Source: a virus
DNA length: 64,000 nucleotides
Strand: one strand, 5' to 3'
Virus record (IMG/VR): IMGVR_UViG_3300027784_000004
Part shown: piece by piece, positions 1 to 63,563 of the stretch
Layout of the letters: each line of letters opens with the position of its first letter
How positions within the stretch are numbered: the first letter of the stretch is position 1
Notes under the pieces: generated by a model
Told to the model about the DNA's origin: nothing
Databases searched by the model: none
Seen by the model: the letters and a program-made list of their open reading frames with translations, nothing else
Position numbers and translations under genes: made by a program

Positions 1-284
1 GGATAATCTTTAATGTTTAAAATATCCATTAAATGTAGTTTGCAGTATTCTTCTAGCAAGCCTTCTACATCTTGCCTTATATCATCAGCTTTCCTATCAT
101 CTTCACCTTGCGCCATTTCAATCAATCTTTCTTTTAAATAAGGCTTTACATTAGCTGTATTGATGCCTAGAATTACTTTATCTTTATTATCATTTTCAAC
201 CGCAAAAGCTTTACCTAAATTAAATTCCTCTATTGCTGTTACATTATAATTACCATCTTCATCTTTGATTAATTTAAGTTGCAT
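1..284 (-). CDS. Hypothetical protein, 3' end runs off the window
   Basis: Hand-translated open frame MQLKLIKDEDGNYNV... from ATG at 284 after RBS GGAAGGTG, overlapping the upstream stop. Confidence 0.6.
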   Translation of the reverse strand, partial: MQLKLIKDEDGNYNVTAIEEFNLGKAFAVENDNKDKVILGINTANVKPYLKERLIEMAQGEDDRKADDIRQDVEGLLEEYCKLHLMDILNIKDY

Positions 285-711
285 CTAAAACACCTTCCAT
301 TTCCTTGTATTCTATTATTTTTACATCATCTTTTTCATATCCTGTAGGCAAGCTTTCTTGTATCATTTTTGCAAAATCAATAACTTCTTCTTTAGTATTT
401 AATCCCCATTCTTCAACTCTATCATCTATAACAACCGCATAATTAACCCTTAAGATGCCAAGCGCTATACGTTTAGATGTAACACTTTTTAAGCGCCTAT
501 CAAGCTTATCAGCAATTTCTTTATCACCTAAACCTTCATAAAATAATTTTTTCAAAAGTTTTTTATCTTCTTCACTCCATTTATTAACATGCCAATACAC
601 TATGCCCATTCTGCGCCTTTTTGATTCTACGCTTTTTTCACCCTTGCCTATAACTTCGCCAATTTCTCTATCACTATAGCCTTGTTCAAAGAGTTCTTTT
701 AATCTTACCAC
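274..711 (-). CDS. Tandem HTH (Myb/GcrA-like) repeat DNA-binding protein
   Basis: Two W/Y-S-x-E-E...G-x-S-D-x-E-I-A repeats; similar to 47498..47788. Confidence 0.65.
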   Translation of the reverse strand: MVRLKELFEQGYSDREIGEVIGKGEKSVESKRRRMGIVYWHVNKWSEEDKKLLKKLFYEGLGDKEIADKLDRRLKSVTSKRIALGILRVNYAVVIDDRVEEWGLNTKEEVIDFAKMIQESLPTGYEKDDVKIIEYKEMEGVLDAT

Positions 712-747
712 ATCTTTAACAGCCCAAGTAATTATAATACACCCCCT

Positions 748-1098
748 CTAAAACCAATCTATAGGCTCAAAACCCATACTATCACAATAAAAGGCTTTAC
801 CATCTACTAATACTATATCGCTAACACTTAAGCTATGCCCCTTAAAATCTTTTGGTCTTTCCATATTAAATTTCATAAATATTTTTTCTAACTCAATATA
901 ATAATCTTCATCAGCGCTAATATCACCATTTCTATCATAATCATAAACTTTTGTATAACAAGATTTTTCTAAAAAGTCTAAGTCAATTCTATCTAAAGCT
1001 TCAAATTTAAATAAACAGCTATCGCCATGTTTTTTACCACATATTTCACTTTTACAATTTACCTGATATATCTCTATATTCAACATAGTATCTATCAT
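748..1098 (-). CDS. YodL-domain protein
   Basis: Motif FN..RPKDFKGHSLSVSDIVLVDGKAFYCDSMGF. Confidence 0.8.
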   Translation of the reverse strand: MIDTMLNIEIYQVNCKSEICGKKHGDSCLFKFEALDRIDLDFLEKSCYTKVYDYDRNGDISADEDYYIELEKIFMKFNMERPKDFKGHSLSVSDIVLVDGKAFYCDSMGFEPIDWF

Positions 1099-1294
1099 TC
1101 CCTTCTACTTTTTGTATGTTTTTGTATTATATGTTTAATCTTTATTACCGTTTCCCTCAACCTCTAAATATAGTATATCATACTAAATGTATAAATGTCA
1201 ACACATAAGTTAAAATACTTATACGTTATTTTTTAGTAAAAAAAAGAGTAGCTTATTTCTTTAAAGCCAACTCTTTTTTTACCTCTTTTTTTAC

Positions 1295-2371
1295 TTAAGC
1301 TATCTTTGAATTTAATAATTTGCCAGCATATCTTTCAATTTTAAGCCTTTTAACTAAGTCATATTCTTGCGCTATTTCAGTTACTGCATTTATATAGCCC
1401 CACGCTGTTTTATCATATACACCGCTATCTATTAAGGTTCTAGCCTTATCTATATTAGCGCTTGATACCTGCTGTGCAAGCATAAATTTATTAAATAAGC
1501 CTTCAAGCTTATCACTATCAATTTTAATATTTTTGTTTTTTTCTATTTGTTCTTTAAAGTATTCTAACATTTTAGGTAACTTAGCCACTATATCTTTCAC
1601 TTCACCGCCCACTTCTTGCCCATCAAAGCCCACATGCTTTTTCTTGTATGCTGTAGCACTACCACCGCCCATTAACAAGCCATTTGAACAAGCCCACTTA
1701 TAAACAAGCACTTCTACATACAAACTACTTCTGCCTACCCTAGAATTTCTAATATTAAAGCCAATAGATAAATCATCATCAAATTTTTCTTCTTGTATAA
1801 TTCTAATATTCATAAATTCAGGATTAACAGCATAGCTTTCTACCCTGTAACCATCTTTTTTAAATACATCATTTATAATATCAAATACCTCTATATCATC
1901 AAAAATAGAATACCTGCTACTTAAAATACCATGCAATCTTTTTTCCTGTTTATCAAATCTTAAAAGCAAATCATCATTTTCAAATTCACTATCAAGCCAG
2001 CTATTAATATTTTTACTAGCTAAATAATTATGCCCCTTGCTTATGCAATGCTTGATATAAGCGCTAGGTATATGATACCTATTGCAAAGCTGTTTTAAAC
2101 TCCACTCACTAAATAAAAAACTTTCATCAGTATCTTTAATAGTTAATGCTATATTATCAATATTTTTAATATCAACCTTTAAATTATTGATAGGTGTAAT
2201 AATATCTTCTTGCCTATCATCAATAGCCTTCACGTTGTCATATACCTGCTTGAAATCTTCTATATAACTGCCAGCACCTTTTCTAAAATCATCTAGGCTT
2301 ATTAGCTTTTCGCTATTATCGCCTAGTAGAATTTTAAGCCTTTCTTTTTTTGTTTTAGCCACTAAAAACAC
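1295..2371 (-). CDS. DUF932-family phage/plasmid protein
   Basis: GILSSRYSIFDD, NSRVGRSSL, VYKWACSNGL and TAWGYINAVTE motifs. Confidence 0.75.
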   Translation of the reverse strand: MFLVAKTKKERLKILLGDNSEKLISLDDFRKGAGSYIEDFKQVYDNVKAIDDRQEDIITPINNLKVDIKNIDNIALTIKDTDESFLFSEWSLKQLCNRYHIPSAYIKHCISKGHNYLASKNINSWLDSEFENDDLLLRFDKQEKRLHGILSSRYSIFDDIEVFDIINDVFKKDGYRVESYAVNPEFMNIRIIQEEKFDDDLSIGFNIRNSRVGRSSLYVEVLVYKWACSNGLLMGGGSATAYKKKHVGFDGQEVGGEVKDIVAKLPKMLEYFKEQIEKNKNIKIDSDKLEGLFNKFMLAQQVSSANIDKARTLIDSGVYDKTAWGYINAVTEIAQEYDLVKRLKIERYAGKLLNSKIA

Positions 2372-2388
2372 CCCTTATTATATTAGTT

Positions 2389-2688
2389 TTATATAGTTGC
2401 TCTTTCTGTAGTATTGCCCATATTAAAGCTATAATTTTTATGCCCTTCACTTCTATAAACTCCAACATTACATTCATATAAACCAACTTCAAAATCATCA
2501 GGTACATTTTCAAAACCATCTATTTCAGCAAGCATACTTCCTTGTCTAAATAAGTCATAATAGTCATGCCCTGAATTACTTTCTATAAAGCTAATATATA
2601 AAGATTCGCCTAAGTCATTAACAGCAAATAAGATTTTAAATTCATCAACACAAACTTCACTACTAATATTTATAGCCATTAATACCAC
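2389..2688 (-). CDS. Hypothetical early protein
   Basis: ORF with RBS directly downstream of a repeat promoter. Confidence 0.6.
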   Translation of the reverse strand: MVLMAINISSEVCVDEFKILFAVNDLGESLYISFIESNSGHDYYDLFRQGSMLAEIDGFENVPDDFEVGLYECNVGVYRSEGHKNYSFNMGNTTERATI

Positions 2689-2815
2689 CCCTTCTAGGTT
2701 TTATCTTTTCCCTCAACCTCTAAATATAGTATATCATACTACTTGTAAGAAAGTCAACACACCTTGCCTGCTAGTTTATGGTAAAAATAAAGCTAAAAGC
2801 CTTAAGCAAATAGCC

Positions 2816-2974
2816 TTATTTTTTTTCACTAATATATATCTTACTGTATTTCTGCCCATCTTCTTCTATTGTGTAATTCACACGAACTTTTTCATATCTG
2901 CCACTATTTCTAAGTTCTTTCGCCTTGTGTAAGGCAAAAGAGTGCTTGTAATGGCTTGTACACCATAACATCAT
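2816..2974 (-). CDS. Small hypothetical protein (52 aa, MMLWCTSHYKHSFALHKAKEL...)
   Basis: Hand-translated; RBS AAAGGGGG; followed by a terminator-like hairpin. Confidence 0.6.
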   Translation of the reverse strand: MMLWCTSHYKHSFALHKAKELRNSGRYEKVRVNYTIEEDGQKYSKIYISEKK

Positions 2975-2997
2975 AGTATAAGCCCCCTTTGTTACTA

Positions 2998-3243
2998 CTA
3001 CCCCCTAGCAACTATCATACCTTTTGCTAGGTGATGTAGATAATCATTAATATCTTTATTTAAGAAGTCTAATTTAGATAACATCTTTTTGATTGCTTTT
3101 CGTTCTTCACCCTTAGTATTTAAAATACCCTCTATAACAACTTCATTATCAATTAAATTAAATTCGCCATTATGTTCAATATTCCAGCTTTTATATTCTA
3201 AATCTTTTTCGTTAAAAAATGTTTTAATGTTCATTTCTATCAC
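2998..3243 (-). CDS. Hypothetical early protein
   Basis: ORF downstream of a repeat promoter. Confidence 0.65.
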   Translation of the reverse strand: MIEMNIKTFFNEKDLEYKSWNIEHNGEFNLIDNEVVIEGILNTKGEERKAIKKMLSKLDFLNKDINDYLHHLAKGMIVARG

Positions 3244-3359
3244 CCTTTTTTATAGTTTTTATTATCGTTTCCCTCAACCTCTAAATACATTGTATCATAC
3301 CACTTGTAAGAATGTCAACACACTTTAGCTGTTAGTTATTGGTAAAAAAGATATAAGCC

Positions 3360-3533
3360 TTAAGCTTTAATATAACCGTATTTACTCATGAACTTTTCAG
3401 CGCCCTTTAATGTTTTGTAAGTTTTTGAATCTACTTTAGTTACCGCTAAATATCTATTATTTTCAATATAAGCTATGCTACCTTCATTACCTGCCTTGTT
3501 AGCGTTTTTATAATACTTTACTATCTTCATCAT
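3360..3533 (-). CDS. Small protein with SKTYKTLKGAEKFM motif (57 aa, DUF1391-like)
   Basis: Hand-translated; RBS AGGGGG. Confidence 0.65.
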   Translation of the reverse strand: MMKIVKYYKNANKAGNEGSIAYIENNRYLAVTKVDSKTYKTLKGAEKFMSKYGYIKA

Positions 3534-3556
3534 CAATACCCCCTGTATTAGTTATA

Positions 3557-3772
3557 TTAAAAGCCCATCAACTCTGCCATTTCATCTGCCTGTTTTCTTG
3601 CATCTTCTATCTTGTTTTCATTATATTTTGATTTAGTAATTATTTTTAAATCTTTTTTGCTATGATATTCAATTTTATAATCTTTGCGGTTGCTATATTT
3701 GCTAGGTATTTTTTTTGCTTTAATTACTATATCAACAAATCTTTTATCTTTTAATATTTTAGGGTTATACAT
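3557..3772 (-). CDS. Hypothetical early protein (start corrected to MYNPK)
   Basis: The ORF-track start lies inside the promoter repeat; RBS GAAAAGGTG precedes ATG 3772. Confidence 0.6.
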   Translation of the reverse strand: MYNPKILKDKRFVDIVIKAKKIPSKYSNRKDYKIEYHSKKDLKIITKSKYNENKIEDARKQADEMAELMGF

Positions 3773-3936
3773 TGCTATCACCTTTTCTAAGTTTTTTATT
3801 ATTACCGTTTCCCTCAACCTCTAAATATAGTATAACATACAACTTGTAAGAATGTCAACACACATTAGCTGTTAGTTATTGGTAAAAAAAATACCACTCA
3901 ATATAGAGTGGTTTTTACATTAGCTTTTAATATTTT

Positions 3937-4176
3937 TTATTTATATAATACTTCTTTAAAGCCTTGATAGTTGTAGCTACCTTCAATTATTGCTTTTGAT
4001 AGTTTTTCATAAACCTTATAAGCATCTTTCATTTCAGCAAAAGCCTTATGATTATATTCTTTTGTATTCTCGTTCATAATACCTACTGTGTAACTATCTC
4101 CACTTTGTCCAAAACTCAATTCTAAGTTACGCTCCAAGTCCTGCATATTAGCTATTGTAAAATCCATTTTTATCAA
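3937..4176 (-). CDS. Hypothetical early protein, paralog of 61889..62116
   Basis: Shared FTIA-M-D, YTVGI-NE-TKEY and DAYKV motifs. Confidence 0.7.
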   Translation of the reverse strand: MIKMDFTIANMQDLERNLELSFGQSGDSYTVGIMNENTKEYNHKAFAEMKDAYKVYEKLSKAIIEGSYNYQGFKEVLYK

Positions 4177-4196
4177 CTCTTTCTAATTTTTTTGTT

Positions 4197-4379
4197 TTAA
4201 GCAAAATGTTTTTCTGTATTTTCAACAACCATTGCCCAATATTTATTACCTAAACAACTATTTTTTTTACCTTCTTTTAAGCCTTCTTCAACACTTAAGC
4301 CAAGAACTTCTATACTTGCAATAATTTTATTAGTAGTTTTTTCAACCGCTTGCATAAATGCTTTTTCCATTATTATCAC
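4197..4379 (-). CDS. Hypothetical early protein
   Basis: ORF with AGAGAGAGTG RBS after a repeat promoter. Confidence 0.6.
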   Translation of the reverse strand: MIIMEKAFMQAVEKTTNKIIASIEVLGLSVEEGLKEGKKNSCLGNKYWAMVVENTEKHFA

Positions 4380-4559
4380 TCTCTCTAATTTTTTTATTTA
4401 TTATCGTTTCCCTCAACCTCTAAATATATTATACCATACAACTTGTAAGAATGTCAATACACTTTAGCTGTTAGTTTATGGTAATAATATATAAAGATTA
4501 ATTAAAAGAAAAAAATTTTACTTTTAAGCAAAAAAAAAATAAGCCAGCTTATTGCCAGC

Positions 4560-4751
4560 TTATAATAGTGCGCTTTTTGTATCCCATTCTTTTATATTTA
4601 AAGGCTTTTGTTTTAAGTTGTTACGCTTTACACGCCAGCCAGCCTTTTTTTCCTCATTAGTTAAAATATCATTAATCCTGTGGTAACTTTTTAACCATAA
4701 GCAAACCATTTCTTTTGTTATATCATTTTCAAGTATAAGCCATCTTTTCAT
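4560..4751 (-). CDS. Hypothetical protein
   Basis: ORF followed by a terminator. Confidence 0.55.
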   Translation of the reverse strand: MKRWLILENDITKEMVCLWLKSYHRINDILTNEEKKAGWRVKRNNLKQKPLNIKEWDTKSALL

Positions 4752-4840
4752 ATTTTTTCACCTGCCTTTATATAATTATTATTCTGCATAAAGTTTTTTG
4801 CACCTTTTAAAGTTTTTACCTTTACTGTATTATTAAGCAT
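4748..4840 (-). pseudogene. 30-aa remnant or mini-gene similar to the C-terminus of 3360..3533
   Basis: KTLKGAKNFMQNNNYIKA versus KTLKGAEKFMSKYGYIKA; ATG overlaps the upstream stop. Confidence 0.4.
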
Positions 4841-5219
4841 AGATAATGTTATATTCAGCCTTTGAGTACAATTTAGTATATATACTATCAAAGCCAAACC
4901 ATTTGCCTTGTTGGTATCTCTTTCTGCTTTCCTCACCCTTTGTAGCTTGTAAAGCTTTTGCCCTTACTTTTAAGTTGTTAATATCACTTTTAGTTAACTT
5001 ATCATTTACTAGCTTATCTTTTATTTCATTTAATGCACTTATAGCGCCATTATAAAATTCGATATTATCTAAAACTCTTTCTAGTCCATACCCTTTAGCA
5101 ACTTCTTTTTTAACTTCTTCCTTATATAATTTATTATCAATTTTACTTATTTCCTCATTTATCTCCTGTGCCTTTTTATTTACATTATCTTTTAGGTTAA
5201 TAGTTAACATCTGCATCAC
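4833..5219 (-). CDS. Hypothetical early protein
   Basis: ORF after a repeat promoter. Confidence 0.65.
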   Translation of the reverse strand: MMQMLTINLKDNVNKKAQEINEEISKIDNKLYKEEVKKEVAKGYGLERVLDNIEFYNGAISALNEIKDKLVNDKLTKSDINNLKVRAKALQATKGEESRKRYQQGKWFGFDSIYTKLYSKAEYNIIYA

Positions 5220-5371
5220 TCTCTCTAAGTTTTTTTGTTTATCGTTTCCCTCAACCTCTAAATATAGTATATCATACTACTTGTAAGAAAGTCAATACAC
5301 TTTAGCTGTTAGTTTATGGTAGAAAAAAAGCCACCTGCTTAAAGTGGCTTATAGCTTTTATTCAACTATTA

Positions 5372-5980
5372 TTATATATTTAAATTTTCATTTATTATTT
5401 CATCAACAGGTTTTGCAGGTTTATTTTCAAAAGTACTTTGGTCTAGTTCTGCAAAAGGTTTTTCCAGCCATTCTTCAAGTTCATCTTTAAACCTTTTTAC
5501 TGTATTAGGCAAACTCTCTTTAGCCTGTTTTATTAAATCTTTTTTAGCACTTTCTTTATCCTTGCTTATAGTGTCCATATAACAGCTACCATTTAAGCGC
5601 AACATATAACGCTTTAAATCTAAAGGCAATCTATCTTTACATCTAATAAGTTTTTGCACCCTATCATCAAATACAAGCCTATGATAGTTTTTTTTCACAT
5701 AAGAAATAACATCTTGAAAATTGCTATCCCATCTGCTAACATTCTTATCTAAATCTTTTAAAATCTTTGTCATTTGCTCCATCATAAATAAATCACCGTT
5801 ATCAACAGTTACATGCCCCCCATAAAAGTTCATAGTGCCTATAGATGCTTGAAACTCTAATTTGCCTACCCATTCATAGGTATTATCGCTAGAACCCTTG
5901 CAAGCGCCAAAACTGATAACAATAAAAGCATATCCATGCCTTTCTGTAGCACTAATATCAAACCCTTTTTTCCTTTTCAT
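5372..5980 (-). CDS. Hypothetical early protein
   Basis: 202-aa ORF between a repeat promoter and a terminator. Confidence 0.7.
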   Translation of the reverse strand: MKRKKGFDISATERHGYAFIVISFGACKGSSDNTYEWVGKLEFQASIGTMNFYGGHVTVDNGDLFMMEQMTKILKDLDKNVSRWDSNFQDVISYVKKNYHRLVFDDRVQKLIRCKDRLPLDLKRYMLRLNGSCYMDTISKDKESAKKDLIKQAKESLPNTVKRFKDELEEWLEKPFAELDQSTFENKPAKPVDEIINENLNI

Positions 5981-6080
5981 TATATATCACTCTCTCTAAT
6001 GTATTTTTTATTATCGTTTCCCTCAACCTCTAAATATAGTATATCATACTACTTGTAAGAAAGTCAACACACTTTTAATA

Positions 6081-6326
6081 TTATTTTTTGCTAGTATTTT
6101 CTTTTACTATTTCATTAACAATATCATATATCTTAAAGTTATCTGAACCCTTTATTAGAAAGAGTTTTCTATAATCTTTTAAATCTTTACCATTAGAATC
6201 TTTTGCGCCATCTTCTATATTAAAAGCTATACCTGCTATATTTAAAGCCTTACATGTTTTCTTTACTTCACTTATATATATATTACATGCAAAACTTAAT
6301 TCAACTTGTTTTATCATTATGAACAC
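6081..6326 (-). CDS. Hypothetical early protein
   Basis: ORF with RBS AAGGGTG. Confidence 0.6.
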   Translation of the reverse strand: MFIMIKQVELSFACNIYISEVKKTCKALNIAGIAFNIEDGAKDSNGKDLKDYRKLFLIKGSDNFKIYDIVNEIVKENTSKK

Positions 6327-6341
6327 CCCTTATTATTTTTT

Positions 6342-6704
6342 TTACCATATATAATAATTGCAATTATATTCATCAGCAAGCATCTTGCCATATTTTGTAG
6401 CGCACTTTTGATATTTAAAATCTTTTAAAGCTATGGATTGCATATTATCTAAATCATCATTTATTAAAGTATGCAACCATACAGTAATAGGCGCATCTTC
6501 ATCTTCATAGTGAGCATATACTTCTATTTCTCTAATTTTAACTTCACATTTAAAATCAAACTCAACATCAAAATCACCTTTCTTTTGAGCCTTTATTTCT
6601 GCTAAAAGTTCTCTTTCGCTGTACTCTTTAGCATCAATAACTACTTCATCAAACAAAATTGTAGTAACCATTAAGCCTTTATTTATAATTTTTTTACAAA
6701 TCAT
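6342..6704 (-). CDS. Hypothetical early protein (start corrected to MICKK)
   Basis: The ORF-track N-terminus runs through the promoter repeat; RBS AGGGGAGAG precedes ATG 6704. Confidence 0.6.
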   Translation of the reverse strand: MICKKIINKGLMVTTILFDEVVIDAKEYSERELLAEIKAQKKGDFDVEFDFKCEVKIREIEVYAHYEDEDAPITVWLHTLINDDLDNMQSIALKDFKYQKCATKYGKMLADEYNCNYYIW

Positions 6705-6922
6705 TATATATCTCTCCCCTTTTTTATAGTTTTTATTATTACCGTTTCCCTCAACCTCTAATAACATTATATCAACTATGTGTAAGTAAGTCAATACATA
6801 CAAGCTGTTAGTTTATGGTAATAAAATTAGTATTTTATATATTAAATAGTAAGTATTCAATATTTAAATCTGTCATATTGTTACAAAAAGGTGTTTTCTG
6901 CTATAATTTACATACATAATGT

Positions 6923-6951
6923 TTGACTTTATGAACATTATTAGATATAAT
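6923..6951 (+). promoter_or_regulatory. sigmaA promoter for the repressor-parA operon
   Basis: TTGACT-17bp-TATAAT, divergent from repeat promoter 6739-6797. Confidence 0.8.
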
Positions 6952-7119
6952 AATAGTTGTTAAACGAACTTTATTTATTTTTTGTGCAGAAGGTGGACAA
7001 GCTATATTTAGCTAAAATAATAAGATTGCTTAAATATTCTGACAACTCGTTTTAAGTAATATTATTAAAAAAGGATAAATATAGATTATATGTAACAAAC
7101 TTTAAAGAATATAAGGAGG

Positions 7120-7533
7120 TTGAAAAAAATGGGATTAAATCAGGAAGCGGTTGACTATTTTCACGAAAATAAAGAGTTCACTTATAGTGATTCTTTTGTA
7201 AAAAGGGTAAAAGGTTTGAGGAAAGAACACGATATTTCACAAATAAAACTTGCTGAACTTCTAGGCAAATCTAATGGTGCTATTGGACATTGGGAAACTG
7301 GGAGGCGTGACCCCTCTCTTGAAACTTTAATACAGATGTGCAAGATTTTTAATTGTAGTTTGGATTATCTTTTTGGCTTATCTAATATTAGAAGGTATGA
7401 AGAAAGCCACAAATATATGCAAAGAGAAATGTATAAAGTAGGTATATTAAAAGATGGAAATATTGATAAGAAAGCTGTAGATGATTTTGTTAAAAAATTT
7501 GACTTAGTAAAGCAAATTGCTAGTGGAGGTTAA
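7120..7533 (+). CDS. XRE-family HTH regulator (candidate immunity repressor)
   Basis: LRKEHDISQIKLAELLGKSNGAIGHWETGRRDP HTH; first gene of the only plus-strand operon. Confidence 0.85.
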   Translation: MKKMGLNQEAVDYFHENKEFTYSDSFVKRVKGLRKEHDISQIKLAELLGKSNGAIGHWETGRRDPSLETLIQMCKIFNCSLDYLFGLSNIRRYEESHKYMQREMYKVGILKDGNIDKKAVDDFVKKFDLVKQIASGG

Positions 7534-7535
7534 AC

Positions 7536-8297
7536 ATGATTATATCTTTAGTAAATCAAAAAGGTGGCGTTACTAAAACCACTTCTGCTATCAATATAGG
7601 TGCAAGCCTATCTTTTCTTGGTCATAGGGTGCTTTTAGTTGACCTTGACCCTCAAAGCAACTGTACAAGTGGTGTAGGCTTTAATAGTGAAGGTGAAAAT
7701 AATATTTTTGATGTTTTAACTTTTAACAAAGATATAAATAGTTGTATTCATGAAACGGGTTATAAAAACTTATATATATTACCTTCTATTGATAGATTAG
7801 CTAATGTAGAACAAATATTAGTTAATGAAATGGATAGAGAAAGAATTTTAAGAAATGAACTTAAAAAAATAGAAAATGATTATGATTTTATATTCTTAGA
7901 TTGTCCACCTTCTTTAGGCTTAATAACATTAAATGCTTTAGTAGCAAGTGATAAACTATTAATACCTATGCTACCAAAACTATTTGCTTTTGAGGGTTTA
8001 ACACTACTTTTAAACACTTATAAAAAAGTGAAAATAAAGATTAATAAAGATTTAGATATATTAGGCTCTTTCTTTTGCTATGTAGATAAGCGCACTAATA
8101 TAGAAGAATATCGACAAGAATTAAAAGATATTTTTAAAGATAAATTTTTTGATAGTATCGTATATCAATATAAACATATCGCTGATTCACAAGAAGAAGG
8201 TACGCCTTTATGCTACCATAACAGAAGTTCAAAAGGTTCTCGTGAATACTTTAACCTTGCAAAGGAGATTTTAGAACATGCCCAAACAAAAGAATAA
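7536..8297 (+). CDS. parA: ParA/Soj-family partition ATPase
   Basis: Deviant Walker A NQKGGVTKTTS, VDLDPQSN, DFIFLDCPP. Confidence 0.95.
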   Translation: MIISLVNQKGGVTKTTSAINIGASLSFLGHRVLLVDLDPQSNCTSGVGFNSEGENNIFDVLTFNKDINSCIHETGYKNLYILPSIDRLANVEQILVNEMDRERILRNELKKIENDYDFIFLDCPPSLGLITLNALVASDKLLIPMLPKLFAFEGLTLLLNTYKKVKIKINKDLDILGSFFCYVDKRTNIEEYRQELKDIFKDKFFDSIVYQYKHIADSQEEGTPLCYHNRSSKGSREYFNLAKEILEHAQTKE

Positions 8298-8766
8298 TAA
8301 GTCAAGCAAGCTTGCAAAAAAATCATTAGGTATCCTTGATAGTTTAGAAGAAACTATTGCTGATAAAAGACAAGCAGAAGAAAGCAATGAGGATATTTTT
8401 TTAGATGATAATGTTAACACTAACAATAATGATAATGATACTGTTAACACAAAAGCTAACAATAATACTAATGCTAAAGCTAACAAGAAAGCTAACACAA
8501 AAGCTAAAGTTAACACTAATGCTAATGTTAATAAAAAAGATGCAAATATTAACAAAAATAATTCAGACAATGACAGCCTAAATGATAGCTTTAAAATTAC
8601 TATTGCTGATAAAACACAAAAAGAAGAAACTAAGCTTAAAGGTATATATCTAAAGCTTACTACTATTGAAAAGGTTGAAATATTAAGCAAGAAAACTGGA
8701 CAATCTCAAAGTTATATAATAGATGAAATACTACAAAAAGCTTTAGAAAGGATTGATGTGAAATGA
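8278..8766 (+). CDS. Putative centromere-binding partner with C-terminal ribbon-helix-helix and an Asn/Ala/Lys-rich linker
   Basis: Overlaps parA; C-terminal KGIYLKLTTIEKVEILSKKTGQSQSYIIDEILQKAL fits an RHH pattern. Confidence 0.65.
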   Translation: MPKQKNNKSSKLAKKSLGILDSLEETIADKRQAEESNEDIFLDDNVNTNNNDNDTVNTKANNNTNAKANKKANTKAKVNTNANVNKKDANINKNNSDNDSLNDSFKITIADKTQKEETKLKGIYLKLTTIEKVEILSKKTGQSQSYIIDEILQKALERIDVK

Positions 8767-9029
8767 TAAATAAAATGGTGGATTTAGCAGAATACAAAAA
8801 GCATAAAGTAGATATTAAAAAAGATGGTAATAAATACATCAATAATATTAGAATAAAATTCTACAAAGAGTTAACAATACAATTAGGTATAGATGCTAGC
8901 ATAGCTTTAGAATTTGCTAATAGTGAAGAAGATACTTTAATTGAAATGTATAATGATAAGCAATTCCCTATAGCAGAATATGCCAATTTTAAAGAAAATT
9001 GTGGTGATATATTTGCAAAAACAATATAA
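8763..9029 (+). CDS. Hypothetical protein in the parA operon
   Basis: Translationally coupled ORF. Confidence 0.6.
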   Translation: MINKMVDLAEYKKHKVDIKKDGNKYINNIRIKFYKELTIQLGIDASIALEFANSEEDTLIEMYNDKQFPIAEYANFKENCGDIFAKTI

Positions 9030-9264
9030 TAAATCCAAAATAGATAAATATATAGATGATAATAAAGAGGTTTATACACTAGCTGATTATAAGCAAATAG
9101 CTATTAAAATGAGTAATGGAGATACTGAAAATAAAGCTGTAAAATGGTTTGATAAAAAGATTGAAGAATCAAAAGATGGAGAAAATCAAATAGTAAAAGG
9201 TGATAAAAAAAAGATGCTGTGGTTTATAGAATCTTTTGTATGGGAACAAGAAGGCTTATCATGA
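9013..9264 (+). CDS. Hypothetical protein, paralog of 55750..55974
   Basis: TLADYKQIA...NKAVKWFDKKI; TTG start after GGTG RBS. Confidence 0.6.
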   Translation: MQKQYNKSKIDKYIDDNKEVYTLADYKQIAIKMSNGDTENKAVKWFDKKIEESKDGENQIVKGDKKKMLWFIESFVWEQEGLS

Positions 9265-12229: not shown

Positions 12230-12565
12230 CTAAATATTCTCTTTTTCTCTTATCATTGCCTTTACTTTCTCAATTTCTTCTTCTCTAGGCTTTATATTGC
12301 TTTTAATGTATTTAAATTTCAAATAAACCCTATTTGCAAAATAAATGTTAGTTATTGCTAAAGATAAGTAAAAAAATCCTGATAGTATCGAATTGCTCAA
12401 AAATTCATTAATTGCTACAATACTTACAAAAAATATAACTAATGCAGAAAAGCCCAAACTTATATAAGTATTTCTAACAGAATTTTTTGCCCCTTCATTA
12501 ATTTCTTCCAACATCTTCAACCTATCTTCTAAATTAGTAATCTCATATTTTTCTAATTTATTCAC
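12230..12565 (-). CDS. Two-TM membrane protein (paralog 1)
   Basis: Two hydrophobic segments between charged coils. Confidence 0.7.
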   Translation of the reverse strand: MNKLEKYEITNLEDRLKMLEEINEGAKNSVRNTYISLGFSALVIFFVSIVAINEFLSNSILSGFFYLSLAITNIYFANRVYLKFKYIKSNIKPREEEIEKVKAMIREKENI

Positions 12566-12891
12566 CCCCCATTATTACCATCTTTTATTTCTCTTAATTT
12601 TTTAATTCTACTAATCTCTTTTTCTCTAGGCTCTATGTTTTCTATTATAGATTTTCTTTCCAAATAAAGTTTAACCCCATAATAAGTGTTTAGTATTGTT
12701 ACAAATAAGAAAAAAACTCCTGTTATTAATGAACTATCTTTAAAACTTATTATTGAAGTAAAAACTGTAACAGGTGTAACTATAGTTGATAGCAAAATAC
12801 AATAAAAAGTTTTCTTTGATACTTCTTTTGCTCTTTCATTTAATTGTATCAAAACTTTTAATCTATCATCTAAATTATCCACATTAAACAA
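12562..12891 (-). CDS. Two-TM membrane protein (paralog 2)
   Basis: L(E/D)DRLK.L...NE.AK and NI.PRE.EI shared with the neighbour. Confidence 0.7.
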   Translation of the reverse strand: MFNVDNLDDRLKVLIQLNERAKEVSKKTFYCILLSTIVTPVTVFTSIISFKDSSLITGVFFLFVTILNTYYGVKLYLERKSIIENIEPREKEISRIKKLREIKDGNNGG

Positions 12892-12912: not shown

Positions 12913-13407
12913 TTATTCCCCCTTATTATTCTTCCAAGGCTCAAGAAACTTATTTAAATCTACAATTAAACACCTTACTTCATCATTCCAATTTGCAATG
13001 TATCTTTTAGTATCACTAGAAATCATAGTTTCTAATCTACTTATAACAGTAGGCGCACTAAAAAAACGTGCATTACTACCGCTGTTTTGCTTACTAGGTT
13101 TATTTAATACTATACTACCATTTATTGAGTCTTCTAGCGGTTTAATAGCTAGTAAGCCTTTAAAAATATCTATTCCAACTTGTACTGCAATAAATTCTTT
13201 TGCATTTATATTTCTATGTATTAGGCGCATTGCATCTGAATTAATATAAAAGTTTGTAGTTTTAAGTGGTGATATAGTTACAAAGGGAAAACCGCTTTTT
13301 AAACCTTTACCGTTTTCTATCCATTCAAAATTGTACTTTGTAGGTTCATCACCTTCCCAATCAAATTTAAAATCATCTAGTTTTTTAACTTCCATTATAT
13401 AATTCAT
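12913..13407 (-). CDS. Hypothetical beta-rich protein, 3-member paralog family
   Basis: FYI...AM, VGID....LAIKP and LIVDL motifs. Confidence 0.65.
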   Translation of the reverse strand: MNYIMEVKKLDDFKFDWEGDEPTKYNFEWIENGKGLKSGFPFVTISPLKTTNFYINSDAMRLIHRNINAKEFIAVQVGIDIFKGLLAIKPLEDSINGSIVLNKPSKQNSGSNARFFSAPTVISRLETMISSDTKRYIANWNDEVRCLIVDLNKFLEPWKNNKGE

Positions 13408-13429: not shown

Positions 13430-13840
13430 TTAGTTTTTCTCTTTTAAATCTACTACTAAACATTCATACTTAGTATTAAATTTAGCCTTGTATCTATTAC
13501 CATCATCTTCTGTATTTAAAAATGGTTCTATAGTTTCATATAATGTATTAGAGGTAAAACATTTAGAATTAGACTTGCTACCGCCTTTACTTAGCTTATA
13601 AGTTTTGCCATTTATATCATCACCTAAATAGGGTTTAATTGCTAGCATCTTTTTTTCTTTATCTAAGCCTACCTTTATATATGTAATATCATCTTCCTTA
13701 AAGTTATATTCTAATAATTCCATAGCTATTGATGATAAATAAAACCTATTGTTGCCATTTGTGTTATTTATAGACAAAAAGGCTTGTCCTGTTTGACAAC
13801 TATTTTTATAGTCTTTAACCCAATCAAATTGATAACTCAA
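13430..13840 (-). CDS. Hypothetical beta-rich protein, same family
   Basis: Same motifs as 12913..13407 and 52546..52962. Confidence 0.65.
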   Translation of the reverse strand: MSYQFDWVKDYKNSCQTGQAFLSINNTNGNNRFYLSSIAMELLEYNFKEDDITYIKVGLDKEKKMLAIKPYLGDDINGKTYKLSKGGSKSNSKCFTSNTLYETIEPFLNTEDDGNRYKAKFNTKYECLVVDLKEKN

Positions 13841-14251: not shown

Positions 14252-14273
14252 AATAACAACCCCTTAATATTAA

Positions 14274-14329
14274 TTATCATTTCCCTCTTGTATTTACATT
14301 TTATCATACTTCTTGTAAGAATATCAAGC
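14274..14329 (-). promoter_or_regulatory. Degenerate copy of the repeat promoter
   Basis: TTGATA-TTCTTACAAGAAGTATGA-TAAAAT followed by GAGGGAAATGATAA. Confidence 0.7.
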
Positions 14330-14357
14330 AAATAATAATGGTATATTATACTATATG

Positions 14358-41320: not shown

Positions 41321-41779
41321 CTAAATTTTCTTATCATCTGATATATCAGTTAATATATTAATGCTCCTTAAAAATGCATCATTACTATTATCTTTTTTTC
41401 TTATAAGTTCTTTCTTTATTACTCTTAAAATATCGCCTATAAAAGCACCTTCACTATCTTCATTTTTAAACTGTATTTTATAGTGTTTGCCAGCATATAA
41501 GCCCTGTTTTTCTAATATTTTTAATAGTTTTTCATCACTTTTTTTATCACTAACTTTTTTCTTTTTTTTAACGCCACCTATATTATTACTAATATCAATA
41601 GTTACCCTGCCTTTTAAATCTTTAATAGCCATATTAGCTAACACCCCTTTTTTAAAATCGCTAACTATTCTATCTGCTAAAGCCTGTTTAGTATCATAAC
41701 ATTCACCATAAATACCAGCCTTACATATATGCTCTATGCTGTGAATACATTTCTTTTCACAAAGCTTTAAACTCTCCAT
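41321..41779 (-). CDS. Hypothetical protein
   Basis: ORF overlapping the terL stop. Confidence 0.55.
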   Translation of the reverse strand: MESLKLCEKKCIHSIEHICKAGIYGECYDTKQALADRIVSDFKKGVLANMAIKDLKGRVTIDISNNIGGVKKKKKVSDKKSDEKLLKILEKQGLYAGKHYKIQFKNEDSEGAFIGDILRVIKKELIRKKDNSNDAFLRSINILTDISDDKKI

Positions 41780-43092
41780 CTTGATGCCTTCTTTTGTGTG
41801 CTAATAGGTGATACTTTAGGTGCATTTTTATTAAGCATTAATTCAGTTAATGCCCATACAACTGCATCAAGCCTATTAGGTGATTTTGTAGATGTAGTAG
41901 GTACATAAGTACATAGTTCATCTTCTAATTTAGCAAAATTGCCTACATGCTTAACTAAGCCACGCTCATATAAAGCAGAAATAGGCTCTGCCCTTGTTAT
42001 TTTACCCCTGCTAGCGTGAACGCTCTTATATGATACCTTGTTATCAACACCATATATTAATTCTTCTATTAAATCGCCACCGTTATTTGCTTCGCCAATT
42101 ATTCTATCTGATTCATAATTATAATAAGCATTAATAGATATTTCTGCCCATTTTTTAGGTGATACCTTGCACGTTTTATCAGCCAACACATAAGCTATAT
42201 TATCTACGCCAAGCCCTGCAACTACTATACCCGTTTCATCACTCTTTTCATTAGCAGTAACAGCAGGGTCAATAGCAACAACAACCCTTTTTAACTCAAC
42301 TAAATCATCTTCATCAACTCTATTTTTTTCAATTAAATCTCTGCTCCACAATGCCCCTTCAACATCTTCTAAAATATTAGCATAAAGTTCTTGTTCTCCA
42401 AGCCTTGTACCCTCATATCTTGCAACTATATCCCTAAAAAACTTTTCAGGTAAATTTGCCCTGTTATCATATGTGCTACCCCTAGTAATATAAGTTCCAA
42501 CTTCTTGCATTATTTTTTTTAAAACAGGTATATTTTTTGGTGTAGTGGTAATAATAGTCCTAGGATTATCACCAAGCCTAGTAGCAAGCTGTAAATTATC
42601 CCATGTTTTTTCAGGGTATTTAAAACTACATAATTCATCAACCCAAGCTAAATCAAATTCGGGTCCTCTAATTTGTTCAGGGTTTGCACCACTATAAACT
42701 GTAGCTATAGTGCCATTTGCCCATGTAAGCCTTCTTTTGCTAGGCTCATATTTTGGTCTTTTTAATGGCTCACCAACATTTAAAATACCACTCTCACCCT
42801 GTATAACAACATCCCTAGCACTAGCAGGCGTTTCCGATACTAAAGCAATACGCCTAACTTTGCCAGCTTGCGCCTGTTCATCAACAAACTCTGCGCCAGT
42901 TCTCGACTTACCAAAACCACGCCCTGCAAGTAGTAACCAAATAGCCCAATCATTGTCAGGTGCTAATTGTTCATCTCTAGCTAAAAAAGCCCAATTTCTT
43001 AAGATACCTTTTAAGTCAATTCCATATTTTTTAGCAAAAACTTCTCTACTTTCTCTATCTAATTCCATTAACTTTTCAGCAGGAGATACCAA
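41767..43092 (-). CDS. terL: Terminase large subunit
   Basis: Walker A AGRGFGKS, Walker B AWVDE, nuclease VVAIDPA...DETG, DAVVWA. Confidence 0.97.
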   Translation of the reverse strand: MVSPAEKLMELDRESREVFAKKYGIDLKGILRNWAFLARDEQLAPDNDWAIWLLLAGRGFGKSRTGAEFVDEQAQAGKVRRIALVSETPASARDVVIQGESGILNVGEPLKRPKYEPSKRRLTWANGTIATVYSGANPEQIRGPEFDLAWVDELCSFKYPEKTWDNLQLATRLGDNPRTIITTTPKNIPVLKKIMQEVGTYITRGSTYDNRANLPEKFFRDIVARYEGTRLGEQELYANILEDVEGALWSRDLIEKNRVDEDDLVELKRVVVAIDPAVTANEKSDETGIVVAGLGVDNIAYVLADKTCKVSPKKWAEISINAYYNYESDRIIGEANNGGDLIEELIYGVDNKVSYKSVHASRGKITRAEPISALYERGLVKHVGNFAKLEDELCTYVPTTSTKSPNRLDAVVWALTELMLNKNAPKVSPISTQKKASRWRV

Positions 43093-48430: not shown

Positions 48431-49216
48431 TTAATAATCTTCGGCAATATATACCCTATTGTGTGTTATACCAAAATCTTTTCTTTCAGTAACCATCATG
48501 CCTAAAGCGTTTTGCGCCCTGTAGGTTGCAGTTACACGCCATACAGGTGTATCAAAATCTTCACCTTCATAATCTAAACGAACATTGCCCCAATTAGTAA
48601 ACTCTAAAGAATCAGGGTAATATAAGCTATCTTCTAAATAATCAACAACTTCTTTAACAGCGTTATCCCATCTACTATTAAAAGGTTTTTGCCCTGCCTT
48701 TTCAATAATTTTTCTGTTATCTTCTAAAATTAAATTACTTGTAAAGCTTTTAGTAGAAGAATCATCACCATATTTATCTTCTAATAGTTTAACTTCTGCA
48801 AGCTTTTCTTCTGCTTTATCAAGTTCAAAATCACCTAATAAAATGCCTATCTCACTATACATATCATCTATCTTTGCTAGCATTTTTTCTTTATCTTCTT
48901 CAATCTTAGCCTGTGCATTTAATTGTTTTTGTTCATTTTTTAATTCTATCTTTTTATCTAATTCGCTTATCTTATTTTCAATATCTTTTATGCTTAAATC
49001 AAAATCACCTTCATCATCATTATCAGCTATAATTTCTAGCATCTTATTATAATCACCAATAGCCCTATCATAACTTTCAATATTTACATTTCTTTCAGCA
49101 CTTTCTTTTAAATTATTAAAGCTTGCATTAGTATTATTATTAAATAAAGATAAAATTATAAGTCCAATTATAATATAATATTTATATTTCTTTGCAAAAT
49201 CTTTCATTGCTATCAC
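48431..49216 (-). CDS. Membrane-anchored protein with an extracellular coiled coil and a YRAQNALG domain
   Basis: N-terminal hydrophobic anchor; L..PDS.EF...YRA.N..G motif. Confidence 0.65.
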   Translation of the reverse strand: MIAMKDFAKKYKYYIIIGLIILSLFNNNTNASFNNLKESAERNVNIESYDRAIGDYNKMLEIIADNDDEGDFDLSIKDIENKISELDKKIELKNEQKQLNAQAKIEEDKEKMLAKIDDMYSEIGILLGDFELDKAEEKLAEVKLLEDKYGDDSSTKSFTSNLILEDNRKIIEKAGQKPFNSRWDNAVKEVVDYLEDSLYYPDSLEFTNWGNVRLDYEGEDFDTPVWRVTATYRAQNALGMMVTERKDFGITHNRVYIAEDY

Positions 49217-49444: not shown

Positions 49445-49669
49445 TTATAGTTCCCAATTATCTATAACGCTAGCCATAGTAGTCCTAGTATCAATATAAC
49501 CATCTTTTAATATAATAAAGATTTTGCCAACTTGCCATGCATAACCCTCTATAATTTCTTTACCCTCAAATTCAACATTATATATATTATGGTTGCTTAC
49601 CTTATCTTCTCTTTCTAAAAATTTTACCGCCCTAGCCTTAACTTCATTTACACAAGTGATAGATGTCAT
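49445..49669 (-). CDS. Hypothetical protein (start corrected to MTSIT)
   Basis: The ORF-track start lies in the repeat leader; RBS AAGGGGTG. Confidence 0.6.
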   Translation of the reverse strand: MTSITCVNEVKARAVKFLEREDKVSNHNIYNVEFEGKEIIEGYAWQVGKIFIILKDGYIDTRTTMASVIDNWEL

Positions 49670-49695
49670 TTTTACTTCACCCCTTATAAGCTTTA

Positions 49696-49753
49696 TTATC
49701 GTTTCCCTCAACCTCAAATATAGTATATCATACTACTTGTAAGAATGTAAAGC
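49696..49753 (-). promoter_or_regulatory. Dispersed copy of the repeat promoter
   Basis: TTTACA-TTCTTACAAGTAGTATGA-TATACT plus GAGGTTGAGGGAAACGATAA. Confidence 0.9.
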
Positions 49754-52545: not shown

Positions 52546-52962
52546 TTATTTTTCCTCCAATTCTTTGCTTAAATCAACTATTAAAGAGTTCATATCCTTA
52601 TTATATTTAGCCTTAAACTTGCCACTATCTAAGTCATAATCTACAACCTCTTTTAATGTTTTTAATAATTGTTTTGAAGAAAAACTAGCGCTTTTTTGTT
52701 TTTTTCTGCTATATAATTTAAAGCCTTTAGTTTCTTCTTTAATAAATTTTATAGCCATAGCTTTATTGAACTTATCAAAACCTATCAATATATTTGTTAT
52801 GTTTTCATTGTGTTCTTCAACTTCTTTCATTGCCATAGTCGATATATAAAAACGTGGACTATTCTTGCCATACGATATACTTAAAAAAGATTCTCCGCTA
52901 TAATTTCTAGTGCCATATACCTTTTTATCAATCCATTCAAAATTAAAAGCCATTATTTTCAT
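52546..52962 (-). CDS. Hypothetical beta-rich protein, same family as 12913..13407 and 13430..13840
   Basis: FLSIS...RFYIS..AM, IGFDK.N.AMAIK, F.AKYN...LIVDL. Confidence 0.65.
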   Translation of the reverse strand: MKIMAFNFEWIDKKVYGTRNYSGESFLSISYGKNSPRFYISTMAMKEVEEHNENITNILIGFDKFNKAMAIKFIKEETKGFKLYSRKKQKSASFSSKQLLKTLKEVVDYDLDSGKFKAKYNKDMNSLIVDLSKELEEK

Positions 52963-55749: not shown

Positions 55750-55974
55750 TTATAGCAAATTCTTAATTAAGTGTAGCATTTGTGATTCACTAGCTAATAC
55801 TATTTCGTCTGCACCTTGTTCAGCTATCTTATCATCAAAGAACTTAACAGCCTTGCTATCTTTATCATTGCCACTTAAAACAAGCGCTATGCCCCTATAA
55901 GTTGCTAATATAGAAGGCTCACCAGTAGATATAGTTGGTATCTTCTTTTTACTCTTGTTCTTCAAATAAGCCAC
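55750..55974 (-). CDS. Hypothetical protein, paralog of 9013..9264
   Basis: LATYRGIA...SKAVKFFDDKI. Confidence 0.65.
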   Translation of the reverse strand: MAYLKNKSKKKIPTISTGEPSILATYRGIALVLSGNDKDSKAVKFFDDKIAEQGADEIVLASESQMLHLIKNLL

Positions 55975-56881
55975 CGCCTTTTATTCTAAAATCATTACCT
56001 TCAAAAAATATTCTATTTTCTCTACACTTTTCATTAATTCGTGAAGTGATACGCTTAAATTGCCTTTGTGAAAATTTCTCAATATCTTTTGTATATTCAT
56101 CTAAAAATAAATCACTAAATCTAATATTACTAGTAAAGATAGTTGTTTTATCTGTGTTATATCTGTAACCTATCCAAGAATGTAGTTTCTCTAGCGCCCA
56201 AGGTGTTGCCCTTTCAGCAAAAATATCATCTAATAATAAAACCTTAGCCCTTTTGCATTTACCATCAATTTCTGATTCTAACATACTTTTTTTCTCACCA
56301 TAAGATGCCCTAATTGCTGTTAGTGTAGAATTAACATCTAAAGCATAAACAGGTAAATACTTATCTTTGTTTTGCCTTATCCACATACCCCTTCTATTAT
56401 TATTTTCATCATACCATTCTTTTTTAACATAATAATCTATAATGCCATTTAATACAGCGCTTGCCATAGTAGTCTTGCCATTACCAACATCACCATTTAA
56501 ATATAACCATTTTTTATTTTTATCATCATAATTAGAAGTGAACTCTTTTAACTTATCAAAATTTTCTTTATCATGCTTGCAATATTTTTCTCTATCTATT
56601 GAACTAAATCTAATTTTTCTATAGTCTTTTATCAATTCGCAAAGGTTTGAATTTTTTAAGAATTGTTCTCTTGTATTAAGATAAAAGCTTTTCTTAATAG
56701 CTTGTTTATGTTTATCACAATGCTTGTATAAAAAATAGTAATCATCAGCAGTAAAATCTTCTGCTGTTTTAGCTTTAATTTTTTCAATTCTATCAGCTAT
56801 ATAATTACTATCAGCTTTTTCCTTTTTCTTATTTTCTAACTGTTCTTTCTTTTTTTGTATAATATCTTGAAATGCACTCAC
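55949..56881 (-). CDS. DnaC/IstB-like AAA+ helicase loader
   Basis: Walker A GDVGNGKT, Walker B LLLDDIFAE, TIFTSN. Confidence 0.92.
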   Translation of the reverse strand: MSAFQDIIQKKKEQLENKKKEKADSNYIADRIEKIKAKTAEDFTADDYYFLYKHCDKHKQAIKKSFYLNTREQFLKNSNLCELIKDYRKIRFSSIDREKYCKHDKENFDKLKEFTSNYDDKNKKWLYLNGDVGNGKTTMASAVLNGIIDYYVKKEWYDENNNRRGMWIRQNKDKYLPVYALDVNSTLTAIRASYGEKKSMLESEIDGKCKRAKVLLLDDIFAERATPWALEKLHSWIGYRYNTDKTTIFTSNIRFSDLFLDEYTKDIEKFSQRQFKRITSRINEKCRENRIFFEGNDFRIKGGGLFEEQE

Positions 56882-61484: not shown

Positions 61485-61775
61485 CTACTCACTAGCTGTT
61501 AGATTCATATTAAAAATATCATCTATGCTATCAACTTCAAAAAGTTCTTTAAGTGCTAAAAGTTCATCTAATTTAAAATCACTAGGCTTATTTTCTCTAG
61601 CATAATATGTGTGCCTTGAAAAGCTTAAAGCCCTAGCAACATCACTTTTATTAATATCTCTTGATAATCTAACAAACTCAAATCTTTCAGAAAGTTCATC
61701 TTCGCTTAATTCTCTTAGCGGTTTATCGCCTTGCTTTCCAAGTATTTTTTCTTTACTAAGATATTGGTTTATCAT
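61485..61775 (-). CDS. XRE/Cro-like HTH regulator
   Basis: DINKSDVARALSFSRHTYYARENKP.DF. Confidence 0.8.
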   Translation of the reverse strand: MINQYLSKEKILGKQGDKPLRELSEDELSERFEFVRLSRDINKSDVARALSFSRHTYYARENKPSDFKLDELLALKELFEVDSIDDIFNMNLTASE

Positions 61776-61888
61776 GTTAGCAACCCCTCTCTAATGTATA
61801 TTATCTGATACTCTTGTAATTATTATACCATACAAGGTGTAAGAAATACACCCTATATAGTTGGTATTTTTTACACCTTTAAAGAATT

Positions 61889-62116
61889 TTAGTTTAAAAA
61901 AGATTTTCTTTGTTCATAGCTATAGCAACCATCTATAATTGCTTTAGTAAGCTTGCTAAATACCTTATAAGCATCTTCTTTGCTAGCATATGTGTTATGT
62001 GTATATTCTTTAGTTTCTTCGTTTCTAATGCCTACTGTATATTTGTTACCATCTTTGCCATACTTTACTTTAATATCTCCTTGTATATCTACCATTTCAG
62101 CTATTGTAAAATTCAT
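61889..62116 (-). CDS. Hypothetical early protein, paralog of 3937..4176
   Basis: Alignment by eye. Confidence 0.7.
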   Translation of the reverse strand: MNFTIAEMVDIQGDIKVKYGKDGNKYTVGIRNEETKEYTHNTYASKEDAYKVFSKLTKAIIDGCYSYEQRKSFLN

Positions 62117-63402: not shown

Positions 63403-63563
63403 CCCTTTCTATTTGTATTATTAAACTTCTTTTCTTATGTATTTAATTATATTATACTATATGTAAGAAAATCAACACACAATAATTGCCAAATAAAATT
63501 TAGACAATAAAAAAACGCTGTATTATTTAATACAACGCTTATGCTAAATGCAATATTTAAAAA

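Follow-up and report, generated by a model that had tools for sequence, protein, structure and literature searches.

The window analysed here is a 64,000-nucleotide (nt) stretch of viral DNA (IMG/VR record IMGVR_UViG_3300027784_000004), with a guanine-cytosine (GC) content of 29% and genes lying almost all on the minus strand. It carries an array of eight copies of a 70-nt repeat family, spread over positions 1151-6819 on the minus strand, that separate blocks of one to three open reading frames (ORFs) each, the last block starting an operon of about 12 genes. Each copy comprises a predicted sigma-A/sigma-70 promoter followed by a conserved leader, and the copies are, we argue, probably the places at which small early genes are gained, lost and moved by ordinary recombination. 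Elsewhere, the window encodes tail tape-measure, Gp37-like tail, large terminase, capsid and prohead protease proteins, together with Mu Gam-like, DnaD/O-like and DnaC-like proteins of replication type. Given these structural, terminase and replication genes and the XRE/ParA genes next to the array, the window represents most of a tailed phage genome, and the array is probably the immediate-early part of a siphovirus-like phage of ~68 kb and 29% GC from soda-lake sediment. Exact protein matches assign the phage to a 68,026-bp contig of JGI metagenome 3300000557, which comes from such sediment. No tRNAs were found in the window and no Rfam family reached the gathering threshold over it; at E<=1, the interval 3750-6100 returned nothing but one chance snoRNA hit.

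The eight units follow one another at spacings of 1556, 561, 540, 599, 838, 772 and 728 nt, counted from the low-numbered end. The first in the direction of transcription, P6794 (6745..6819), adjoins the divergent XRE promoter region and combines a 25-nt extension with the promoter TTGACT-17-TGATATAAT and the leader ATTAGAGGTTGAGGGAAA. P6067 (6017..6067; TTGACT-18-TGATATACT plus leader) has neither an upstream extension nor a preceding terminator and is followed by the shared ribosome-binding site (RBS) TTAGAGAGAGTGATA. Over 54 nt it is identical to P5295 (5245..5320), which does carry the upstream extension, as do P4457 (4407..4482), with a 12/12 promoter TTGACA-18-TGGTATAAT, as well as P3858 (3808..3883) and P3318 (3268..3343). 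In P2757 (2707..2782) the extension has diverged, and the final unit of the array, P1201 (1151..1201), starts a long operon that continues beyond window position 1, as seen in a 7.2-kb contig from the same sample. Three distant copies, likewise on the minus strand, lie outside the array: P49752 (49702..49752; -35 TTTACA, leader ATTTGAGGTTGAGGGAAA), which precedes the genes 49445-49717 and 48431-49216; P62201 (62151..62201), which is identical to P4457 over 51 nt; and P62706 (62656..62706), which heads the ORF 62323-62613. An earlier note on this DNA, made from its letters, had listed the eight near-identical repeats and the three distant copies at 49696, 62148 and 62650, and our repeat search returned all eight in their places. 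The distant copies were recovered through the leader 18-mer TTTAGAGGTTGAGGGAAA, which occurs with at most two mismatches at 11 sites, all on the minus strand (1151, 2707, 3268, 3808, 4407, 5245, 6017, 6745, 49702, 62151 and 62656). Since shuffling gave an expectation of 0.18 sites, with none of 100 shuffles getting to 11, we accept the distant copies as real. Full repeat copies are confined to the early and replication regions, and none is found in the structural genes from 43 to 16 kb.

The copies share TTGAC(A/T), an 18-nt spacer, TGnTATACT and the leader TTTAGAGGTTGAGGGAAA, with a mean identity of 84% over 54 nt for nine copies aligned in register. In a promoter scan, all eight array promoters scored 10-12 of 12 positions against TTGACA-17/18-TATAAT and carried the TG of an extended -10, with T-rich or AT-rich sequence upstream; together with the conserved leader, these features bear out the claim that each repeat would be a complete promoter plus leader. 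In six copies (2744, 3305, 3845, 4444, 5282 and 6781), the repeat search further delimited an upstream extension of 61 nt; a 25-nt upstream element is present in six copies of the promoter-leader unit, and five or six copies have the RBS in common. Read on the coding strand, the full unit thus runs from a terminator T run through TACCATAAACTAACAGCTAAAGTGT, TTGAC(A/T), an 18-nt spacer starting TTCTTACAAGT, TGnTATACT, ATA, TTTAGAGGTTGAGGGAAACGATAATAA, an A-rich stretch and TTAGAGAGAGTGATA to the ATG. At five of the seven internal junctions, a predicted hairpin with U run directly precedes the promoter, one further junction having a weak hairpin and one none, and terminators would accordingly close many of the blocks, as had been proposed. 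Three further minus-strand promoters of the same family, at 14321, 61845 and 63469 (spans 14260-14330, 61790-61850 and 63410-63475), keep the spacer TTCTTACA and the extended -10 and have different leaders, so that promoter and leader are separable parts. One of these variants stands at the head of an accessory block (14.2 to 9.3 kb), another at the head of a small Cro/C1-type helix-turn-helix (HTH) gene (61485-61775).

Between the promoters lie seven cassettes, all on the minus strand. Cassette 1 (6081..6704) consists of two orphan ORFs (6342-6704, 120 amino acids (aa); 6081-6317, 78 aa), and cassette 2 (5372..5980) of a single orphan ORF (202 aa), with a predicted terminator behind it at 5328-5350. 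In cassette 3 (4560..5210), ORFs of 125 and 63 aa precede a terminator at 4539-4563; in cassette 4 (3937..4370), a 57-aa ORF is followed by one of 76 aa (3937-4167) and a terminator at 3893-3912; and in cassette 5 (3360..3772), ORFs of 71 and 57 aa are followed by the weak hairpin. Cassette 6 (2816..3234) holds a 78-aa ORF matching PHROG 6004, a family without assigned function, and a 52-aa ORF, with a hairpin and U run at ~2783-2823, and cassette 7 (1295..2679) an ORF of 96 aa and the gene of a DUF932 protein (1295-2362; 355 aa), with a hairpin and U run at ~1235-1284. The operon behind P1201 starts with YodL-like (748-1086) and HTH/GcrA-like (274-711) genes (274..1086, minus strand). On its other side, the array is bordered by a divergent plus-strand operon (7120..9264) encoding an XRE-type HTH protein (7120-7533), a ParA ATPase and a possible ribbon-helix-helix (RHH) protein, and the presence of this operon suggests a temperate or plasmid-like lifestyle.

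The blocks had been described as one to three unrelated small ORFs, which fits our finding that BLASTP among the ORFs detects one paralogue pair only. Twelve of the 15 ORFs between 6704 and 274 have no family hit, such hits being limited to the DUF932, YodL-like and HTH/GcrA-like ORFs. In an exact look-up among ~15 billion proteins, eight cassette proteins were confined to contigs of one sample, and the largest orphan (202 aa) had no match in the ESM Atlas. The earlier note had further envisaged that the cassettes encode anti-defence or host-takeover functions and should be screened against defence systems. None of the array proteins matched a PADLOC defence-system model, and neither Pfam, PHROGs, PADLOC nor the ESM Atlas linked any cassette protein to either role; because informative homology is lacking in these resources, the proposed role is a guess from position. 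For the DUF932 cassette protein, the nearest homologues (54-61% identity) are found in two contigs, one a Logan assembly (SRR7048219, L026) and the other from GCA_048618615.1 (L027). Both contexts look non-phage, with the DUF932 gene preceded by several small ORFs and an Amidoligase_2 gene, and hint at a DUF932 gene moving between kinds of mobile element. Outside the array, other small proteins form paralogue families at 31-36% identity (12913-13407, 13430-13840 and 52546-52962; 12230-12565 and 12562-12891), the member at 52546-52962 lying far from its two late-region paralogues.

Two features of the window point to exchange between the repeats. First, the gene 3937-4167 is duplicated at 61889..62116 on the minus strand (51% identity at the aa level, ~70% at the nt level), and each of the two genes is tied to one of the 51-nt-identical promoters P4457 and P62201. 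The distant paralogue stands directly behind P62201; its counterpart is the second gene of cassette 4, and upstream retains a degenerate A-run and RBS of the module without the promoter. This overall pattern is what one would expect to remain after a crossover in the interval from the -10 to the RBS. Second, the promoter copies are mosaics of two subtypes. P3858 has a left half of one subtype and a right half of the other, and P49752 likewise joins halves of both.

Turnover itself is seen in a distant pair of phages. Searching with the leader motif led to L105, an 86.7-kb, 35% GC phage in IMG/VR (IMGVR_UViG_3300027811_000039, 17352-38365) that has ~14 promoters in 9 kb, each ahead of one to four small ORFs. 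L105 and its relative L106 (IMGVR_UViG_3300037424_001076) share the DUF932 array protein and ParA with the window phage (48-50% aa identity for L105), and the proteins that they have in common with each other are 45-85% identical. Over the compared stretch, L105 has 14 promoters and L106 eight. Four promoter-plus-ORF units are found in one of the two genomes only; at one site, genes that have a 4-nt overlap in one genome are separated in the other by two inserted units; one unit has been relocated behind its own promoter copy; and two units stand in swapped order. This is unit turnover of the kind predicted, in a distant relative rather than in the window phage.

The layout of the array is already known from phages T4 and SPO1, and the array is a further example in an unusual phage. 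In T4-type phages, promoter-early-stem-loop elements (PeSLs) pair a sigma-70 early promoter with a neighbouring stem-loop terminator and are found on either side of orphan genes (Arbiol et al., 2010, PMC2839356; Comeau et al., 2014, PMC4122927). Recombination at PeSLs gives rise to indels as well as mini-circles, and its crossovers have been located in the stretch from the -10 to the Shine-Dalgarno sequence (PMC2839356). At the level of sequence, the array resembles them. Its 11 repeat copies contain a near-consensus early promoter with AT-rich upstream sequence, a stem-loop predicted to be capable of termination is adjacent at five of seven junctions, the repeats are clustered among orphan genes of small size, of which one to a few lie between successive copies, homologous exchange has been proposed for both, and the mapped PeSL crossovers match the exchange deduced here between -10 and RBS. 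However, PeSLs have been described in lytic myoviruses that are large, infect Gram-negative hosts and possess the T4 recombination machinery, whereas the genome around the array is siphovirus-like, low in GC and 68 kb long, and carries XRE and ParA genes but no recognised recombinase. The two kinds of repeat lack sequence homology, the array repeat includes a fixed transcribed leader and often an RBS, and the PeSL model rests on indels between close relatives and on mini-circles, whereas the array is known from sequence alone.

The host-takeover module of SPO1 comprises ~24-26 small genes in ~12 operons, each with a strong sigma-A promoter, a strong RBS and a terminator. Like the array, it belongs to a Gram-positive-type phage and consists of short early operons with near-consensus sigma-A promoters encoding small proteins mostly without homologues, and the array blocks are likewise predicted to be short operons with their own strong sigma-A promoter, strong RBS and terminator. 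In contrast to the array, whose neighbour is an operon for a repressor and partition, the SPO1 module is part of the terminal redundancy of a 130-kb myovirus that is strictly lytic, and several of the module's genes have been shown to act in host shut-off. To our knowledge, SPO1 promoters have not been described as sharing a long identical leader. The module is mentioned in two articles (PMC6873191 and PMC10531801). The parallels drawn by the earlier note to SPO1 and to the T4 early-promoter cassettes therefore hold at the level of sequence organisation, but its description of the array as integron-like does not. Integrons also line up short gene cassettes with a repeated element in between and differ in content between relatives, yet they rely on an IntI tyrosine recombinase, attI and attC hairpins, and a single common promoter for promoterless cassettes. 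No IntI-type recombinase was found among the Pfam and PHROG hits of the flanking genes, neither attC nor attI sites are present, each block has its own promoter, and the hairpins are GC-stem and U-run terminators.

According to these data, we consider it probable, at roughly 70%, that the array consists of early expression units, each self-contained, that persist and turn over in a PeSL-like manner by ordinary recombination between the repeats. One module, used at least 11 times, would create many short, mutually insulated transcription units of one to three small orphan genes, which host RNA polymerase would fire together on infection. The 50-110 bp of near-identity at the unit boundaries would then permit homologous recombination or gene conversion, and over evolutionary time promoter-plus-gene units could be duplicated, deleted, inserted and moved with their neighbours undisturbed and with no dedicated recombinase involved. 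Recombination between the repeats, as the earlier note had claimed, is plausible and unproven, with the duplicated unit, the mosaic promoters and the turnover between L105 and L106 speaking for it indirectly.

A number of observations weigh against this interpretation. As to phage recombinases, only the Mu Gam-like protein and RusA were recognised in the window. No relative at a distance informative on turnover at the window repeats was found among named phages, plasmids and IMG/VR or by protein searches: the first 12 kb had no megablast match to named phages or plasmids; TerL, capsid and DUF932 searches returned only proteins of at most 61% identity in unrelated contexts; the Gam protein returned only itself; and a full HMMER search with the replication initiator yielded nothing above 45% identity over the full domain and one short stretch at 57%. 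Three shorter contigs from the same sample are collinear with the window at 99.9-100% identity, which makes them too close to be informative on turnover. A comparison of relatives, as suggested by the earlier note, thus shows collinearity for these near-identical strains and unit turnover for the distant pair. Among public sequencing runs, one DNA run, probably the source, and no RNA run holds the sequence, the DNA run being available as contigs that break at the repeats. These contigs contain only two low-depth, unclean joints, namely a skip joint from 4511 to 7091, with 21 nt on one side, and a back-joint from 6740 to 3249, with a depth of 3 compared to ~26-30 for the genome and 16 unmatched letters; neither is convincing, the latter being the only candidate for the excised circles that had been anticipated. 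Finally, promoter activity and start sites are predicted from sequence, and a regulator could have its sites in the upstream 25-mer and the conserved spacer TTCTTACAAG, which would then not be traces of recent exchange.

This last point leads to the most serious competitor of unit turnover by recombination, which we nevertheless rate as clearly less probable. Here, the repeats would be uniform mainly because they serve as operators, at which the XRE protein or a small Cro-like HTH protein silences the at least 11 promoters in a plasmid-like prophage state, recombination being incidental. Mycobacteriophage L5, with its many repressor sites, provides a precedent. The XRE-ParA operon borders the array, and the spacer TTCTTACAAG is kept in all copies as well as in the variants at 14321, 61845 and 63469 that lack the leader, which is more than sigma-70 recognition needs. 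At 14321, moreover, the spacer is a 12-bp palindrome (TTCTTACAAGAA), and in the sister pair L105/L106 a palindrome, GTAGACAATGTCTAC, spans the -35 of the promoters. However, a search of the XRE promoter region revealed no copy of the conserved parts of the repeat, and the leader core is also conserved in unrelated phages with which, by tblastx, the window phage has no regulator in common, which argues that the leader at least is not a lineage-specific operator. Operator function would, in any case, be compatible with cassette turnover.

The leader extends beyond this phage and its relatives. Its 14-nt core, GAGGTTGAGGGAAA, follows a sigma-70-type -10 box at a distance of 7-8 nt in phages that are unrelated to one another and have GC contents of 30-68%, the sites outside the window being L005, L007, L008 (IMGVR_UViG_3300037760_000038), L088/L093, L089, L092, L099, L103 (MT316461, 71.9-73.9 kb) and L107:3002-3033 (PQ006119). 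An 18-mer scan of IMG/VR detected a 63% GC phage with the same 20 nt after a TTGCGT-17-TAAAAT promoter, in three copies, and in a second GC-rich lineage the 14-mer is unchanged and the flanks have diverged. The set of leader-bearing phages includes Streptomyces Hiyaavirus-type phages of 63-68% GC; the isolated Streptomyces phage Galactica has three variant leader copies; and the leader stands in promoter context in two further AT-rich phage contigs (L019 and L061/L089), as does its core in the inovirus PQ006119. Requiring a -10-like box 6-9 nt upstream, the 14-mer gave ~8 independent promoter-context hits among 30 distinct contexts, compared to 0 or 1 among 14 for the letter-reversed control. 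Among 185,579 bacterial and archaeal species genomes, the 20-mer had two chance coding-type matches only, which argues against its having been copied from a conserved host gene and, together with its retention in unrelated phages, indicates that the motif is under selection in its own right. Part of the uniformity of the repeats should thus reflect function, maintained by purifying selection, and not exchange. A literature search for the leader sequence returned unrelated primer matches only and no description of the element.

As for its function, a regulator common to the leader-bearing phages was considered and dropped, since tblastx of the window against the GC-rich leader phage G001 showed tape-measure similarity only. 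A second, tandem promoter with TTGAGG as its -35 was likewise rejected because no consistent -10 follows, and a leader peptide because there is no start codon at a workable distance. Strong host-type early promoters such as T5 N25 and T7 A1 have a conserved purine-rich initial transcribed region. The leader resembles it in being purine-rich directly after +1 and common to the early promoters of one phage, but differs in that the same 14-mer recurs across unrelated phages of very different base composition. Most likely, the leader would act on initiation, promoter escape or stability of the mRNA 5' end, via machinery common to many hosts. Tentatively, and with less confidence than in the units themselves, we suggest that GAGGTTGAGGGAAA may be an undescribed promoter-proximal element of unrelated phages (low-GC siphovirus-like, Streptomyces Hiyaavirus-type and inovirus) that works through a universal host component, be it RNA polymerase in initiation or escape, the ribosome or a 5'-end RNase, and that promoter-leader-RBS modules may be exchanged between phages, capturing new early genes.

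A more specific possibility, which we regard as rather unlikely, is that the leader serves as a Shine-Dalgarno-like 5' stabiliser, with a 30S subunit bound to GAGG..GAGGG at the 5' end blocking 5'-to-3' decay by RNase J. The identifiable hosts of leader phages belong to Gram-positive lineages (Streptomyces) that possess RNase J. A stabiliser would also explain why, of all parts of the repeat, the leader is best kept. It is rich in purines and located at the predicted 5' end, the own RBS of each gene follows 25-45 nt beyond it, and its first 8 nt, GAGGTTGA, are the real RBS of the XRE gene both in the window and in locus L037. Protection of this kind has been described for the cryIIIA STAB-SD and the SP82 polypurine stabiliser, references to which are listed in PMC3997798. 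The 5' untranslated regions of the window are predicted to be unstructured, but predictions for the motif in the inovirus and in GC-rich phages have it base-paired, not free. Pairing of the 14-mer with the 16S rRNA 3' tail is calculated at -7.7 kcal/mol, compared to a mean of -9.8 for shuffled versions, 82% of which pair at least as well. Furthermore, an exact 14-mer across hosts is not expected of a generic Shine-Dalgarno mimic, and the lineage of L106 tolerates many purine-rich leader variants.

Least probable, in our view, is an actively swappable, integron-like library whose cassettes are often excised as circles and reinserted at the repeats, varying anti-defence or takeover genes in the population: the repeat boundaries, orphan content, terminator insulation, unit turnover in L105/L106 and the mini-circles documented for T4-type PeSLs (PMC2839356) would suit it, and the back-joint is arranged as one that arose by circle formation or duplication between two repeats would be, but that joint is shallow, carries unmatched letters and lies in mutually similar sequence, the skip joint is short on one side, the strain-level contigs are collinear, integrase, attC and attI are lacking while every cassette has its own promoter, and no cassette protein falls into a known defence-related family.

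Two further observations concern the phage as a whole. The terminase (41767-43092) and the DnaC-like protein (55949-56881) are found exactly in Logan contigs, and slightly different versions, belonging to the same 90% cluster, are encoded by a 68-kb JGI contig; given these two versions, at least two strains of the phage were present in the sample. In addition, the usual RBS motif of the phage genes is AGGGGG(T) and not GGAGG, with AGGGG preceding 24 of 73 sampled minus-strand starts, a habit that may inform on the host.

The PeSL design has been experimentally documented only in T4-type phages, and the window presents the same design in a low-GC, siphovirus-like and probably temperate or plasmid-like phage. 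Arrays of this kind are a good place for seeking host-takeover or anti-defence genes in uncultivated phages. The 14-nt leader is the more useful lead and, should it prove to raise expression, would offer a portable element for expressing genes in Gram-positive bacteria.

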